Source: a virus
Lineage: Duplodnaviria > Heunggongvirae > Uroviricota > Caudoviricetes
DNA length: 35,746 nt
Virus record (IMG/VR): IMGVR_UViG_2563366879_000004
Coordinates: 1 to 35,746 of that record
Direction: 5' to 3' (one strand)
Shown here one piece after another: positions 7,047 to 18,775 of this stretch (within the stretch, counting starts at the first letter, position 1; every line of letters begins with the position of its first letter). The position numbers were made by a program, and so were the translations under genes. The notes under the pieces are model-generated. The model was not told the DNA's origin, did not search any database, and saw nothing but the letters and a program-made list of their open reading frames with translations.

Positions 7047-8237
7047 TTAATTGCTGTTAACCGAGGTGACCAGATTTGCCAGATATTTATCGGTGATACG
7101 CTGGCGCAGGGTCAGGTTTTCGAGAGGAGGCACCGGGGTATAGTCGTAGTCGATATACAGTTTTCCGGCCTTGAGGGTTTCCGCATCGTTGGATTCTTCG
7201 CTGAACCAGCAGGTCGCATCCACGATATAGCCGTTTGTTTTCAGCTCACGGAATTTGGCATTGATGCCGTCAACGATGTCGCGAATCAGCGTTGCGGTGA
7301 TAGGCTTGTCCACCGCCCACATATGCGCCTCAGCCATCGTGTCGGCCAGCACCTGCGCGGTGCGGGTGTAGTTTTCAAAGAGGAACAGCGGGTCATCAGA
7401 GCAGGTACGGTTACCCCAGAAGCGGAAACCGTCACGGCGAATCAGCGTTGTGACGCCTGCCTCGTTCAGCAGGTCAGCATCGGTGCCGGACTCCTGCAAA
7501 TCCCAGAATACAGAGGCGCTGATGCCGGTAACACCGTTTACCCCGACATTGGACAGCGTTTTATGCCAGCCCTGCTCCTGGTCGATTTTAGCGCGCAGAC
7601 CCAGCGCACGGGCGGTGGCATACGCGGTGGCGGTGGTGCTGCTGACCGTATCCCATGCGAGGAAATCCGGCCAGATGACCATCAGCTCACGCTGGCTGAA
7701 ATTCTGGCGGTAGGCTTTCACCTCGGAAATAGTCTTACAGCCCCATGCGCTGATATATCCGAAAGCGCGCAGCTTCTGACAGACGGATGCCAGTGCAACA
7801 GCCACCTCTTTGGTATCCAGTCCCGGCACACCGAGAATACGCGGTTTAACACCGGTTACCGACTCCGCCGCCAGCAGGGCTTTCAGTCCGGTGTACTGAC
7901 CGTTTTCATCGGTGGTGCCGATGATATTGGAAACGGTCTGCGCGAGTTTCGTTTCTTCGTCATCGCCGGTGCCGTCTTCCACGCGCACGACAACGGTGAC
8001 CGGTTTTGACTGGTCGGCGATGGCCTGCAACGATGCCGCCAGCGTGCCTTTTTTACCGGCCTTTGCAATTGCGCTCTGCACATTGGTAATCAGCACAGGT
8101 TTATTGAGGGGGAAGGTTTCCGCATCCGCATCGCTAGCCGTGCAGACCATGCCGACAATGGCAGTGGATACGGTGGAAATGACGCGGGTGCCGTCGTTAA
8201 TCTCCAGCACCTGCACGCCGTGATGATAGTCACTCAT
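7047..8237 (-). CDS. FI: Contractile tail sheath protein gpFI
   Basis: 396-aa ORF; P2 FI length and synteny. Confidence 0.9.
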   Translation of the reverse strand: MSDYHHGVQVLEINDGTRVISTVSTAIVGMVCTASDADAETFPLNKPVLITNVQSAIAKAGKKGTLAASLQAIADQSKPVTVVVRVEDGTGDDEETKLAQTVSNIIGTTDENGQYTGLKALLAAESVTGVKPRILGVPGLDTKEVAVALASVCQKLRAFGYISAWGCKTISEVKAYRQNFSQRELMVIWPDFLAWDTVSSTTATAYATARALGLRAKIDQEQGWHKTLSNVGVNGVTGISASVFWDLQESGTDADLLNEAGVTTLIRRDGFRFWGNRTCSDDPLFLFENYTRTAQVLADTMAEAHMWAVDKPITATLIRDIVDGINAKFRELKTNGYIVDATCWFSEESNDAETLKAGKLYIDYDYTPVPPLENLTLRQRITDKYLANLVTSVNSN

Positions 8238-8662
8238 CCGTTTAACTCCGTGGTTAATGGGTGCAACTATTTTCTGTTGGGCAGAGCATGAGACGCTATT
8301 TGACCTGGCTGGTCAGTGGATGAAACAACAGATAAAGAAAAGGCGGGCAATTCACCCGCCAGTCCTGATTTGTACTCACTCATTTTCCGACTGACAATTT
8401 ACTTAGCCCAAAAGCTTGTCGAATGTCTCAGGGCGTGAAGCGGACATTGCTAACAGCGTTTTATGTGAATTAACAGGGAGTAGGTCAACGTAGCGCTAGT
8501 GGCGTGTATTCTGGCTTAAAGTGTGGAGCAGTTGTCAGATTCAATGCTCATTGCAAAAAATTGTGTTCTAAAGAGGGCTGTTATATGTTATAGGTTGTTA
8601 AGCACCATCGGTGTAAAATACACTTAGAAGTGTCAAACAAGATCGTTCAAAAGGAAGACAAA

Positions 8663-8920
8663 ATGAATAACCAGCAGTTTAGGGATTTTTTGCGCAAAAA
8701 TGCACATATTGTGGATTCCAATTGGAATCCAACAGATGCACAGCTAGATGAAATCAGAGCAGCAATACAGAGAGAACTAGATCTAGGTAATAAGATAAAC
8801 TATAGCGGCCTTCAACATATCATTATTCGCATTACTGGCACTACTAGGGTAATGATATTTGATAGCGTTGATAATAGTGATTTAAACATGCTATTAGCTG
8901 CAGCAACAAAAAAGAGTTAA
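8663..8920 (+). CDS. Hypothetical 85-aa protein, first gene of the cargo module at the Z/fun position (ORF as supplied begins at 8630)
   Basis: ATG at 8663 preceded by AAGGA at 8651-8655; AT-rich; no recognised domain; opposite strand to flanking tail genes. Confidence 0.55.
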   Translation: MNNQQFRDFLRKNAHIVDSNWNPTDAQLDEIRAAIQRELDLGNKINYSGLQHIIIRITGTTRVMIFDSVDNSDLNMLLAAATKKS

Positions 8921-8923
8921 TAA

Positions 8924-15158: not shown

Positions 15159-15914
15159 TTAGTTGTAACACTTCTCTATAATCTTCATACACTCCTCATG
15201 AGCTAAATCATGGCTGTCAAATTCTTTATTAAAAAAGAAGAAAAACGCCTTCTTAACCTGAGGCATTTCAATAAAAATAAATTCATCAACCTTATGAAAG
15301 AAATGAAAACTCTTGTTTGATGTTTCAAAAACCATCAAAGAATTATGTTTTTTATCCTTCCATTTCGACATCAGATTGCGTCGCGATTTTCTTATAATCC
15401 TGAAGACATCCTCCGGTGTCGTATCGACATTCCCCCAAAACATTGCAACCGGGAAGTTTGCAAGGAAAGGGATATAATCCCCCCCTTTATACCTGAGAAA
15501 GCGGGTCCGTAAATCCATTAATTGCAACTTAAAGCCCATGTATTGCAACCACCATATGATGCAATCATATTCATAATCTGTTAACTCATCGCCCCTCTTT
15601 TCCGTAAGAAATTTCTTCAGGTTATACTCAAACGCTCCCAGCAAATCAGAATTGCACACTCTGCATGCTGGTACAGTGGCTTTGATGTAATGAGTTGACT
15701 GATTATTCTTTTTATTAATTAAAAGTTTTTCAGCATTTGACTCAAAAGCCCACTGAGGAATAATGTGCTCACGAGTAATATCGCCAGAACTCCCGCATAA
15801 CACACATACATCAGCATTATGGTCAGCAATAATACAATCCATAACTTTCTTTTGAGAATGCTTTACTCTTTTTCTCAAAATGGAAAACTTTTTATCCACA
15901 AACACCCGTCTCAT
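15159..15914 (-). CDS. HNH-motif nuclease-domain protein (251 aa) at the orf30 variable position
   Basis: N-terminal CVLCG...REHIIP...N...CRVCN pattern (two CxxC pairs flanking an HNH-like core); ATGA overlap with the S stop; AT-rich relative to neighbours. Confidence 0.6.
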   Translation of the reverse strand: MRRVFVDKKFSILRKRVKHSQKKVMDCIIADHNADVCVLCGSSGDITREHIIPQWAFESNAEKLLINKKNNQSTHYIKATVPACRVCNSDLLGAFEYNLKKFLTEKRGDELTDYEYDCIIWWLQYMGFKLQLMDLRTRFLRYKGGDYIPFLANFPVAMFWGNVDTTPEDVFRIIRKSRRNLMSKWKDKKHNSLMVFETSNKSFHFFHKVDEFIFIEMPQVKKAFFFFFNKEFDSHDLAHEECMKIIEKCYN

Positions 15915-16369
15915 ATAACATCTTTCGATAGAATCACTAATAACTCCCTTTCTATCAATTGTATAGATTCCTTGTCAAAACCAAATAACTCACGAACAGG
16001 ATATTCCACCACAGCACTATTACGCCCCGGCTTATCCCTAAGCCCTAATTGATGTACCCGCGCAATTCGTTGTACTCCGCTGGCAAACGCCACCACCGCC
16101 GCACTCTCGCTACCTGTTGCTTTCATAAACCGGTTAGTGCGTAATTTCACAAACATTTCCCGCTTTATCCGGCCTTTCTTATTTCGCACTGGCTGGTTTT
16201 TTCTCGGTACATACGGCGTACCATCCGGGGCTTTTTGTAATTTAATTCGCTGCTGCTGGCGCTGGCGCAGTTTCTTCGCAATATCTACCGCCAGTCGCCG
16301 ACGCCCTGACGGTGACAGTGACTCAGTCAGTCCGGTCAGCCGGTCTTCAAAACGCTTAAACTCATTCAT
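15911..16369 (-). CDS. S: Tail completion protein gpS
   Basis: 152-aa ORF in P2 gpS position (recalled P2 length 150 aa). Confidence 0.8.
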   Translation of the reverse strand: MNEFKRFEDRLTGLTESLSPSGRRRLAVDIAKKLRQRQQQRIKLQKAPDGTPYVPRKNQPVRNKKGRIKREMFVKLRTNRFMKATGSESAAVVAFASGVQRIARVHQLGLRDKPGRNSAVVEYPVRELFGFDKESIQLIERELLVILSKDVI

Positions 16370-16838
16370 CCCACTTGCTCACCAGTTCGCCATTGATATA
16401 AAGCTCCATCGGGCGGGTGACCGGCTCCGGCGGCGTGGGTTCCGGGATATTCTTCACATGCAGCGCGCCGTCCACCTCACTGACCAGCGTGCGCTCGGTC
16501 AACATCAGGCTGATGCTGATATCAAAGCTGCTGTCATTGTTGATGTCTGCATAAAACGTGAAGCCCTTTTTCTGGCCTTCGTCGGTGGTCATGATGTCGG
16601 GCTGATTTTCCCGCAGCCACGCCAGCACCGGCACAATAAGCAGGTCAAAATCACCGGTAAAGTCGGTCACAATCACATTGAGCGTGTAACGCTTTTCGAA
16701 TGACAACGACGTCGCCAGTGTGGAGGCAATACTCCCGTTATCCACGAATATCCGCAGCATCTCGGGACTGGTTTTCAGCACCGTGACGGCATCAGTCAGC
16801 GCCCTGCGCAGGCTGTCGGGTTTGAGCATCGTTTTCAT
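16362..16838 (-). CDS. R: Tail completion protein gpR (true start may be the internal ATG at 16829, giving 155 aa)
   Basis: 158-aa ORF in P2 gpR position between lysis genes and S. Confidence 0.8.
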   Translation of the reverse strand: MKTMLKPDSLRRALTDAVTVLKTSPEMLRIFVDNGSIASTLATSLSFEKRYTLNVIVTDFTGDFDLLIVPVLAWLRENQPDIMTTDEGQKKGFTFYADINNDSSFDISISLMLTERTLVSEVDGALHVKNIPEPTPPEPVTRPMELYINGELVSKWDE

Positions 16839-17082
16839 CCTGACAGTGTTTAATCATTTTTACCTGGCTGGCACAGCGTGCCAGCGCGTTCTCAAGCTGC
16901 CGGATATCGGCACTTAAATCGCCGTTCGTCTGCGGGTCACTGCCCGGCATCGGGCAAAGGCTCACTTTCGGGCAGGCGTTGTGGACAATCACTGGCGTCT
17001 GCACAGGCTGTGCGCTGGTGCAACCGGCGCACAGCATCAGGCAGGTCAGCGCCGTACCAGCGGCGAAAATCTTCGTTTTCAT
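16792..17082 (-). CDS. lysC: LysC, Rz1-like outer-membrane lipoprotein, embedded out of frame in lysB
   Basis: ATG at 17082 with GAGG 8 nt upstream; 96 aa beginning MKTKIFAAGTALTCLMLCAGC (signal peptide plus lipobox); P2 LysC length. Confidence 0.75.
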   Translation of the reverse strand: MKTKIFAAGTALTCLMLCAGCTSAQPVQTPVIVHNACPKVSLCPMPGSDPQTNGDLSADIRQLENALARCASQVKMIKHCQDENDAQTRQPAQGAD

Positions 17083-17362
17083 TAAGTAACCTCGTGATGG
17101 TTTTCTCGCGCTGTGCTTCACGCTTCGCGGCGTTTTCCAGTTCCTGACGCAGTGCCACCTGCGCCAGCTCGTTTTTGTCTGCCCTGGTGAGGGCAACATG
17201 AAGCTGATTTTTCAGCATGGTGATGGTCGTCTGCTGCCCGCTGGCGACGCTGTTCGCCCTGTCCAGTGAGGTGCGCAGTCTGGCGTTTTCATGCTTCACC
17301 AGAAACAGCCCCGCCACCGCCAGCGATAACAACACGACCAGTGCAATCATCAGCTTTGACAT
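16937..17362 (-). CDS. lysB: LysB, Rz-like spanin component
   Basis: 141-aa ORF with N-terminal TM helix and charged coiled-coil; P2 LysB length and position. Confidence 0.8.
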   Translation of the reverse strand: MSKLMIALVVLLSLAVAGLFLVKHENARLRTSLDRANSVASGQQTTITMLKNQLHVALTRADKNELAQVALRQELENAAKREAQREKTITRLLNENEDFRRWYGADLPDAVRRLHQRTACADASDCPQRLPESEPLPDAGQ

Positions 17363-17775
17363 AGTTCCCGCCCCTCAAGACGCTGACGGCAGGCCGTACG
17401 TATCAGCCGGAAGAACACCGATGCCACGAGATAAATCAGCGCGGTAAAAATCCACCCGGCAGCGACCAGCGAGATAAATGTCGCCACCATCACCACCAGA
17501 GCTACTGCCCGTCTGCGCCACGGCACCGGCTGCAAAAACAGCGCCGTGACAATCTTCACGGCCAGCGATTCCGGTGGCAGCTCCCGCCCGTAGCGTTCCA
17601 GTACATACTCTGTGGCATACACGCCGACACCACCGGCAACCACACAGATAACCGTCGCCAGAATCGCCCAGGCGGCGACAAAACTGACGGCCACGCTCTG
17701 CGGGTAAATCAGGGACAGTGCCAGCATCAGCGCCAGCGACACGTTCAGCATCAGTGAAAGGGATAATTTCTTCAT
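17350..17775 (-). CDS. lysA: LysA, lysis-timing membrane protein
   Basis: 141-aa ORF, multiple hydrophobic helices; P2 LysA length and position. Confidence 0.8.
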   Translation of the reverse strand: MKKLSLSLMLNVSLALMLALSLIYPQSVAVSFVAAWAILATVICVVAGGVGVYATEYVLERYGRELPPESLAVKIVTALFLQPVPWRRRAVALVVMVATFISLVAAGWIFTALIYLVASVFFRLIRTACRQRLEGRELCQS

Positions 17776-17789
17776 GGTGTTTACTCCGT

Positions 17790-18287
17790 TTAAGCCGGTA
17801 CGCCGCCAGCGGTACGCCAGACGGTGACCAGTTTTTCCAGTGAATGCTCACGCTGACCGTAACCGGCACCCGGCAGGGACGCCCAGATATTGCGACAGCG
17901 TGAAATGGCGCGCTCAATGCGTCCCGCCCGGATGTCATCCAGTGCACCGCGTTCGCGGATCAACTGAATGGCGAGTCTGTCCTGTGACAACGGACTGAAA
18001 TCCGGCAGGGCAAGCTGTTTGCGGTAGTGCGGCCAGAACAGGTAAAGCTGCTGATAGCGACCGGAGGCCGTGGATTTTTCACCACGACGGTTAAACACCT
18101 TCGCCGGTCGGCCATGTGCGAACGGGTGGTCACTGTAGTCGGTGAAGATTTCCGGCTTCCCGTCCAGTCCGGTGACTATCACGTCATAGCCCCGGTTTTT
18201 CGTCAGCGGGTGATTCGCCGTCCCTTCGGACACGGCCAGCATGTCGAGAAAGGCAGCGATATTCTGATGCGTGTTAATTACCGGCAT
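17790..18287 (-). CDS. K: Endolysin gpK (lysozyme)
   Basis: 165-aa ORF; P2 gpK length; downstream of the holin. Confidence 0.85.
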   Translation of the reverse strand: MPVINTHQNIAAFLDMLAVSEGTANHPLTKNRGYDVIVTGLDGKPEIFTDYSDHPFAHGRPAKVFNRRGEKSTASGRYQQLYLFWPHYRKQLALPDFSPLSQDRLAIQLIRERGALDDIRAGRIERAISRCRNIWASLPGAGYGQREHSLEKLVTVWRTAGGVPA

Positions 18288-18568
18288 TACTGTTTCCCCC
18301 TGCCCTTAAAGCGGCGCTGAATGGCAATCTCAATCACCTGATAACCGGCGATACCCAGCATGGAGCCGATGCCGCACACCGCAGGCAGTGACAGGTCAGG
18401 AAACTGCACCAGAACAACACCGGCAACCATCGAGACAAAACCACCGAGCAACATGCGCCCGATAAACAGACGCGGGGTGATGGGTTCACCACCGGCAAGC
18501 ACCTTGCCGACAACAATCAGCACCCCAATCATGAAAAGCGACAGGACGCTTTTTTCTTCTGCTGTCAT
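18287..18568 (-). CDS. Y: Holin gpY
   Basis: 93-aa ORF with hydrophobic helices and charged C-terminus; P2 gpY length. Confidence 0.85.
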   Translation of the reverse strand: MTAEEKSVLSLFMIGVLIVVGKVLAGGEPITPRLFIGRMLLGGFVSMVAGVVLVQFPDLSLPAVCGIGSMLGIAGYQVIEIAIQRRFKGRGKQ

Positions 18569-18571
18569 GCG

Positions 18572-18775
18572 TTACTCCCACAGATTGACAGTTTCAGCCA
18601 CGGGCGCGGTCTGAACGTCGGGCAGTTCGACGGCGGTGCCGTGTGGCAGCACCGCGCCCAGTTCAGCCAGTCCCGGATTTGCGGCGAGCACGGTCTCAAC
18701 CACGCCCTCAGTGCGCCCGTAATACCGGACACAAATGGCGTCGAGCGTGTCGCCCTGTAGCGCAAAGGTCTTCAT
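18572..18775 (-). CDS. X: Tail protein gpX
   Basis: Internal ATG at 18775 gives 67 aa (MKTFALQGDTLD...), P2 gpX length; TGATG overlap with the L stop. Confidence 0.8.
   Translation of the reverse strand: MKTFALQGDTLDAICVRYYGRTEGVVETVLAANPGLAELGAVLPHGTAVELPDVQTAPVAETVNLWE

Follow-up and report, generated by a model that had tools for sequence, protein, structure and literature searches.

The lysB/lysC gene pair of phage P2, known since 2004, serves as the textbook example of an 'overlapped' spanin. In that year, Markov et al. reportedly complemented lambda Rz/Rz1 null mutants by co-expression of P2 lysB and lysC. The overlapped class of spanins is defined by this very pair (PMC3556154); P2 is listed as 'ovl' in SpaninDB, with LysB/LysC as the paradigm two-component spanin and LCAG as the lipobox (PMC6139136). 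Here we analyze the corresponding locus in a 35,746-nucleotide (nt) stretch of viral DNA (IMG/VR record IMGVR_UViG_2563366879_000004), referred to as the window. All coordinates are positions in this window, and the features of the spanin region are all located on the minus strand. The locus is part of a complete P2-like (Peduovirus) prophage in which the spanin pair ends the lysis cassette, and we are highly confident that the genes at 16792-17362 are overlapping P2-type LysB/LysC two-component spanin genes. The two genes with their frames, the predicted start, export and lipidation signals, their conservation and the purifying selection on both frames are described below. Such a pair is already known, ordinary and very common, and for biology the finding changes nothing. 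Its practical value lies in annotation, and the new points are modest: Cys21 as the predicted lipidation site, an account of the lipobox by dual coding, a hand-over of constraint between frames, and a systematic mis-annotation of the lysC start.

P2 LysB and LysC (NP_046767 and NP_757382, respectively) are encoded in NC_001895 at 7922-8347 and 8202-8492, together with R at 8455-8922. The three genes map exactly onto window positions 16937-17362, 16792-17082, and 16362-16829, respectively. Gene order, frames and lengths (141 amino acids (aa) for LysB and 96 aa for LysC) are the same, as are the overlaps of 146 nt (lysB/lysC) and 38 nt (lysC/R). The GAGGT Shine-Dalgarno sequence, the LCAG-C lipobox, four periplasmic cysteines in LysC and two cysteines in LysB are common to both. 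Alignment to P2 LysC, which had been suggested as a check in the initial annotation of this DNA, gave 94% identity, the same value as for LysB, and both alignments are gapless. LysC differs from its P2 counterpart at six positions (window to P2: K2R, A11V, Q25P, V27A, Q28P, and H34P) and LysB at nine.

Both proteins also pass the cut-offs of dedicated family models. LysC matches PF23793 (64 bits, cut-off 27; 1.2e-17), the equivalog model NF038368 P2_Rz1 (125.1 bits, cut-off 27; 9e-37) and phrog_456 (3.4e-31), while LysB matches the equivalog model TIGR03495 phage_LysB (165.8 bits, cut-off 92.75; 5.8e-49) and phrog_89, an Rz-like spanin family (2.7e-58). The Pfam scan of LysB (E <= 0.01) returned a single sub-threshold match, to DUF5937, a family unrelated to Rz, and sequence searches of the PDB with LysB and LysC gave no meaningful match; neither family has a solved structure. 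A megablast search with 16300-18600 retrieved 97 phage records, nearly all of them Peduovirus, at 97% identity. DNA homologous to 16792-17362 is found in 1609 of 5426 complete Escherichia coli genomes, with three copies per genome at most, which means that P2-like prophages are widespread.

The arrangement of the two genes is that of the overlapped class, whose o-spanin gene begins within the i-spanin gene, is read in the +1 frame and ends outside it. The lysC gene (16792-17082; 96 codons plus stop) starts 280 nt into lysB (16937-17362), i.e., in the +1 frame, and lies in an open frame of 135 codons (16792-17199). The dual-coding stretch comprises 146 nt including the lysB stop codon (16937-17082). 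From the lysB stop (16937), lysC continues for 145 nt to 16792, first through a lysC-only stretch of 107 nt that reaches to the start of R (16830-16936) and then through a 38-nt overlap with R that encodes the variable C-terminal tail of LysC (16792-16829). The initial annotation had described a 96-aa putative lipoprotein frame with a signal peptide, an LCAGC lipobox and a Shine-Dalgarno-supported start at 17082, lying in a different frame within and beyond lysB and overlapping the start of R. These features were all recovered, the last with 38 nt when R is given its P2-equivalent start. The label 'embedded', with lysC inside lysB, was wrong: in the embedded class the o-spanin gene lies wholly inside the i-spanin gene, whereas lysC ends 145 nt beyond the lysB stop, which places the pair in the overlapped class (PMC3556154, PMC6139136).

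Phage lambda Rz/Rz1, an embedded two-component spanin, is likewise located at the end of the lysis cassette, and periplasmic cysteines occur in both pairs, but the lambda Rz1 gene lies wholly inside Rz while lysC runs beyond lysB into R. The overlapped spanins of the P2 group (LysBC of Burkholderia phages KS14 and KL3, and the pairs of Fels-2 and HP1/HP2) have the same +1 overlap and four-Cys o-spanins, at a much lower identity of 36-48% (PMC3091744). An NGDL-type motif is common to the LysC analyzed here, Fels-2 and HP2. The lipoboxes of these other spanins are canonical (TLSG-C in Fels-2 and MLLA-C in HP2), and lysC of KS14 and KL3 reaches only 8 bp into R.

A comparative set was built from 313 related loci from viral contigs together with P2, pro147, and the window, yielding 232 distinct lysB-lysC-R junction sequences (the relatives). 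Each of the 232 has lysC in the +1 frame of lysB, with an overlap of 104-191 nt and an end that lies past lysB; none has an embedded gene. The start codon (230 ATG, 2 GTG) lies exactly 20 codons ahead of the lipobox cysteine in every relative, the 38-nt overlap with R is present in 229, and C21, C37, C43, C70, and C80 of LysC are invariant. A protein search with LysC found 179 relatives with identities down to 59%, and at 59% identity or more the five invariant cysteines and an NGDLSADIR motif are retained. The initial annotation had staked its case on a lipobox-containing homologue and a conserved frame in related phages; such homologues exist, and Cys21 and the frame are kept in 232/232.

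Could the +1 frame nevertheless be no gene, but a stretch of GC-rich DNA that is open by chance? In the window, 65 open reading frames (ORFs) reach 100 aa or more, and many are spurious alternative-frame artefacts; several phage records leave lysC unannotated. Lipobox-like patterns arise by chance as well: a PROSITE-like pattern run on all 983 candidate starts of the window matched 12 of them in five distinct places, none of which coincides with an identified gene. On its own, the lipobox motif is neither sufficient nor specific, and an open frame plus such a pattern is not beyond chance; it is homology and selection that lift lysC above it. We calculated the ratio of nonsynonymous to synonymous substitution rates (dN/dS) by the Nei-Gojobori method over 4000 random pairs from the 232-sequence set. 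In the lysC-only stretch, where lysC is the sole candidate frame, dN/dS is 0.16 in the lysC frame as opposed to 1.50 and 1.92 in the other frames. Nucleotide diversity there peaks at lysC third positions (0.37), with 0.18 at first and 0.13 at second positions. No stop interrupts the lysC frame in any of the 232 sequences, whereas the other two contain stops in 204 and 232. The curated hidden Markov models match strongly, and the five cysteines and NGDLSADIR persist down to 59% identity. The chance reading, to which we give practically no probability, is already refuted by these comparative data.

Within the lysB/lysC overlap, selective constraint passes from the lysB frame to the lysC frame. 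Where the LysC signal peptide is encoded, lysB is the more constrained frame (dN/dS 0.34, versus 0.90 for lysC); where the start of mature LysC is encoded, this role falls to lysC (0.27, versus 0.64 for lysB). Where lysC overlaps R, constraint acts on R (0.23) but not on lysC (1.18), so that this overlap most likely represents a free-riding variable C-terminal tail of LysC with no functional coupling to R. The lysB/lysC/R region is thereby a clean worked example of overlapping frames sharing constraint.

The ATG at 17082 opens the 96-aa LysC product, MKTKIFAAGTALTCLMLCAGC-TSAQ.... A Shine-Dalgarno sequence, GAGG (17090-17093), is located 7 nt 5' of this ATG within lysB codons T90-R91. GAGGT is likewise marked for P2 lysC in SpaninDB (PMC6139136 supplement), and GAGG or GGAG precedes the equivalent start in 211/232 relatives. 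Based on charge and hydropathy, residues 1-20 (17023-17082) are predicted to form a signal peptide that is cleaved after G20. It has an n-region MKTK with a charge of +2 and a 13-residue h-region, IFAAGTALTCLML, with a mean hydropathy of 2.05. The lipobox L17-C18-A19-G20-C21 (17020-17034) follows, with C21 as the putative lipid-accepting residue and Thr at +2. LysC thus combines the basic n-region, hydrophobic core, lipobox cysteine and lack of Asp at +2 that characterize an o-spanin. A residue other than Asp at +2 agrees with the outer-membrane sorting rule.

A start at an internal ATG (Met16, 17037) would instead produce a protein of 81 aa, beginning MLCAGC, that has no signal peptide and is no lipoprotein. 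It is exactly this codon that the RefSeq annotation of the closest E. coli genome uses; many NCBI proteins are likewise 81 aa long and begin MLCAGC, and the internal ATG occurs in 224/232 relatives. It is preceded by no Shine-Dalgarno-like motif in 229/232, though, compared with the GAGG or GGAG found ahead of the upstream start in 211/232. The upstream start is present in 232/232, while the internal ATG is lost in eight (ACG, ACA, or ATC). Moreover, the internal ATG is built from the Asp-Ala codons of a near-invariant LysB segment, LPDAVRRLH, and is conserved because of these codons; a function as start is not needed to explain it. The 15 residues upstream of Met16 keep their signal-peptide character (basic n-region and hydrophobic core) at identities of 59-95%, and the 96-aa form is used by the P2 reference record and SpaninDB. 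The start at 17082 is the better one, and we regard initiation at Met16 as highly improbable.

From the 17082 start, mature LysC (16795-17022) would comprise 76 aa, with four periplasmic cysteines and a long C-terminal helix. Mature lambda Rz1, for comparison, has approximately 40 aa and one cysteine. The N-terminal part of mature LysC is proline-rich and extended, with six prolines in the first 30 residues and the invariant C37 and C43, and the conserved NGDLSADIR motif lies between this part and the helix. The AlphaFold2 model contains the signal helix, the proline-rich extended linker and a long C-terminal helix (residues ~56-89) with the invariant C70 and C80; the block-mean predicted local distance difference test score (pLDDT) is 75-89 over residues 51-90. 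This agrees with the description of LysC as a protein with a proline-rich N-terminal and a helical C-terminal part (PMC3556154). As a side observation, LysC residue 25 (17008-17010, minus strand), the first linker proline in P2, is Gln in the window. This residue varies among the 232 sequences (P in 147, R in 68, Q in 16 and S in 1), making Gln a minority natural allele, and the adjacent Pro26 is mostly retained (208/232).

LysB has the organization of an i-spanin, with one N-terminal transmembrane segment followed by a periplasmic domain, as judged from hydropathy. The membrane anchor is predicted by the Kyte-Doolittle scale at codons 4-22 (LMIALVVLLSLAVAGLFLV, 17297-17353): the maximal 19-residue mean is 2.99, starting from residue 4, and the remainder of the protein is hydrophilic. 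SpaninDB gives P2 LysB the same topology, with an N-terminal membrane segment of 22 residues (PMC6139136 supplement). In the periplasmic domain, C120 and C126 are invariant in the relatives. The conserved cysteines of LysB and LysC appear compatible with disulfide-linked complexes but are no proof of them.

A number of observations speak against the spanin assignment. The lipobox is non-canonical, having Cys or Ser at -3 rather than L/V/I, and a strict PROSITE-like pattern fails; SpaninDB remarks 'No hit by Prosite' on P2 LysC (PMC6139136 supplement), and LipoP reportedly gives two LysC cleavage sites, after residues 17 and 20 (SpaninDB, PMC6139136). LysB has no significant similarity to lambdoid Rz (BLASTP against phage 21 Rz, E = 0.31), and neither LysB nor LysC matches a lambda Rz/Rz1 family in Pfam at E <= 0.01, where LysC gives the LysC family only. 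The AlphaFold2 model of LysC is moderately confident, with an overall mean pLDDT of 68, and translation, lipidation, localisation, and membrane fusion of the window allele are predictions. Given the lack of sequence similarity to Rz/Rz1, homology offers no basis for transferring the mechanism, which is carried over on the strength of shared topology and of complementation. The pair resembles Rz/Rz1 in topology, gene arrangement, and function and not in sequence; the term 'Rz/Rz1-type' first applied to this locus holds for the P2 lysB/lysC pair as a functional equivalent and fails as a statement of sequence similarity.

The two LipoP cleavage sites noted for P2 LysC also allow another lipid acceptor, namely Cys18 (with cleavage after Leu17) instead of Cys21, or both residues, and Cys18 is kept in 88% of relatives. 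The pattern of substitutions points the other way. Cys21 never changes (232/232), while Cys18 is replaced by Ser in 27/232, the LSAGC clade. Lipidation at Cys18 would put Leu at -1, outside the G/A/S rule. With C21 as +1, the -1 residue is only G or A in the 232 loci (S occurs as well in database proteins), the -2 residue only A, V, or T, and the +2 residue always Thr; at -1 and -2 these sets match the permitted residues exactly and conform to the published lipobox consensus [LVI][ASTVI][GAS]C (PMC6139136). C18S arises from TGC to TCC, a substitution that is silent for lysB (GTG to GTC), so that residue 18 seems to ride along with the lysB frame. These comparative data, including the C18S clade, identify Cys21 as the predicted lipidated residue, and we consider a lipid on Cys18 very unlikely.

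The unusual residue at -3 has a possible explanation in the second reading of the same bases. Those that encode LysC L15-T22 also encode LysB L107-H115, the near-invariant LPDAVRRLH, and LysC codon 18 consists of positions 2 and 3 of LysB Val111 and position 1 of Arg112. As long as Val-Arg is retained in LysB, LysC residue 18 is limited to Cys, Ser, Phe, or Tyr. We infer that the odd -3 residue is probably a by-product of dual coding with LysB. It is conceivable, though quite improbable, that lysC yields two products, either from starts at Met1 and Met16 or from processing at Cys18 and Cys21. If so, a full lipoprotein and a shorter or differently anchored form could tune the timing of lysis, in the manner of the dual starts of holin and antiholin, and the timing phenotype reported for lysC alleles could be connected with this. 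A simpler explanation treats the conserved ATG and Cys18 as passengers of the LysB LPDAVRRLH codons.

With regard to function, the lambda Rz/Rz1 model, summarised in PMC6116005, and published work on P2 are the basis on which we infer where the proteins are localised, that they form a complex, and that membranes are fused. Read from 17362, lysB would give an inner-membrane protein with one N-terminal transmembrane helix and a largely helical periplasmic domain. A second ribosome would start at 17082, directed by the GAGG within lysB, and translate the +1 frame into the 96-aa lipoprotein precursor. This precursor would be exported, lipidated on Cys21, and cut after Gly20 by signal peptidase II, and LysC would be sent to the outer membrane because its +2 residue is Thr and not Asp. 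LysB and LysC would then bind via their periplasmic domains, and the complex would reach across the periplasm through the cell-wall meshwork. After removal of the wall by the endolysin, the complex would fuse the inner membrane with the outer one as the last step of lysis.

LysB and LysC were originally regarded in another way, as regulators of lysis timing that act on the holin and not as disruptors of the outer membrane. Notes reading 'nonessential; affects timing of lysis' are still present in the P2 reference annotation, and lysC missense alleles in the first two prolines have a timing phenotype, with a possible holin interaction (PMC3556154). An inner-membrane anchor paired with a predicted outer-membrane lipoprotein is, in contrast, the topology of a spanin, and P2 LysB/LysC are treated as paradigm spanins in the literature (PMC6139136, PMC3556154). 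Lambda Rz/Rz1, too, were deemed auxiliary until tested without shear or with Mg2+ (PMC6116005). A timing effect and a spanin role are compatible with each other. We rate a purely regulatory role as highly improbable; the role of a spanin pair is preferred.

The start of lysC is systematically mis-annotated in databases, and a start at Met16 strips the protein of its export signal. We sampled eight annotated records, one from E. coli EC21 and seven from phages. The full 96-aa lysC is present in a single one (1/8), the P2 reference NC_001895. The records of pro147, PhiR44_1, and HQ103 have a 52-aa fragment that starts near the lysB stop and lacks the signal peptide and lipobox, while no lysC is annotated in those of P37, fiAA91-ss, and L-413C. 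In E. coli EC21 (RefSeq, annotated with the Prokaryotic Genome Annotation Pipeline, PGAP), lysC is named but begins 15 codons late, giving 81 aa from Met16; many LysC proteins sourced from NCBI have the same 81-aa form. In coordinates of the retrieved loci, the 81-aa form is found at 626-871 of L316, and the 52-aa fragments at 2151-2309 of L001 and 1651-1809 of L319 and L321; L317, L318, and L320 are without lysC. The view in the initial annotation that such genes are routinely missed thus applies to the phage records, where three of the six other than P2 have no lysC and three a fragment, and is half true for RefSeq bacteria, for which the one genome checked has lysC named by PGAP with its start misplaced. 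This agrees with the report that o-spanin genes in embedded or overlapped arrangements usually are uncalled or have wrong starts (PMC6139136). In three further database proteins (P0010, P0023, and P0117, with 141, 168, and 166 aa, respectively), N-terminal parts of LysB are fused into the lysC frame. Frameshifts or deletions within the overlap apparently gave rise to these fusions, in which a transmembrane anchor and a lipobox would share one chain.

The genes around the pair complete the context expected of spanins, i.e., adjacent or overlapping genes at a holin-endolysin cassette. According to the ORF listing and family scans, the lysis cassette Y-K-lysA-lysB-lysC is contiguous (16792-18568). 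It comprises the holin gene Y (18287-18568; PF04550 Phage_holin_3_2, 2.6e-42), the endolysin gene K (17790-18287; phrog_17029 and the endolysin family phrog_90, P2 annotation) and, directly upstream of lysB, lysA for a hydrophobic accessory lysis protein (17350-17775; phrog_162, 3.9e-68). The lysA product is called 'endolysin' by PHROGs and RefSeq phage records. It has 141 aa, is very hydrophobic and has no enzyme-domain match, and NCBIfam gives only 'DNZ54_00345 family'; the P2 record notes for it 'nonessential; affects timing of lysis'. K, the true endolysin, has PHROG matches only and no Pfam or NCBIfam match at the thresholds used.

Downstream of lysC lie R, a tail completion/terminator gene (16362-16829 from the P2-equivalent start; P2 annotation), and the tail gene S (15911-16369). 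The PF06891 match of R (6.6e-45) covers residues 4-134 of a longer ORF. Relative to P2, a C-to-T change (GGACGAAAACGATG to GGATGAAAACGATG, 16827-16838, minus strand) gives R an extra in-frame ATG at 16838, three codons upstream of the P2-equivalent start; ORF finders report 158 aa, while the P2-equivalent R has 155 aa. With this window-specific ATG, the lysC/R overlap would amount to 47 nt. Codons 66-72 of lysC contain an 8-bp hairpin, GCUGGCAC-GCU-GUGCCAGC (16867-16885, minus strand), which the P2 record describes as 'putative transcription attenuator; O operon'. We rejected this hairpin as a feature conserved in the gene pair: it has a folding energy of -18 kcal/mol but a z-score of -1.2 and no U-tract, and all eight pairs are found only in the close P2 clade (105/232), with one to four pairs in 122 of the 127 other relatives.

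Another gene of the prophage differs from its surroundings. An ORF of 251 aa (15159-15914, minus strand) is located between the tail genes S and V, where P2 has orf30, on the strand of S, whose stop it overlaps by 4 nt. A PADLOC scan of this ORF for defence systems gave no match. Its GC content is low (0.33-0.40 versus ~0.57 in the flanks), and its product contains an HNH-like motif (CxxC...H...CxxC). The full length of the ORF matches phrog_10503 (2e-180), and phage R18C is the only one of 50,697 phage records to share it. The 251-aa ORF is probably a horizontally acquired cargo gene.

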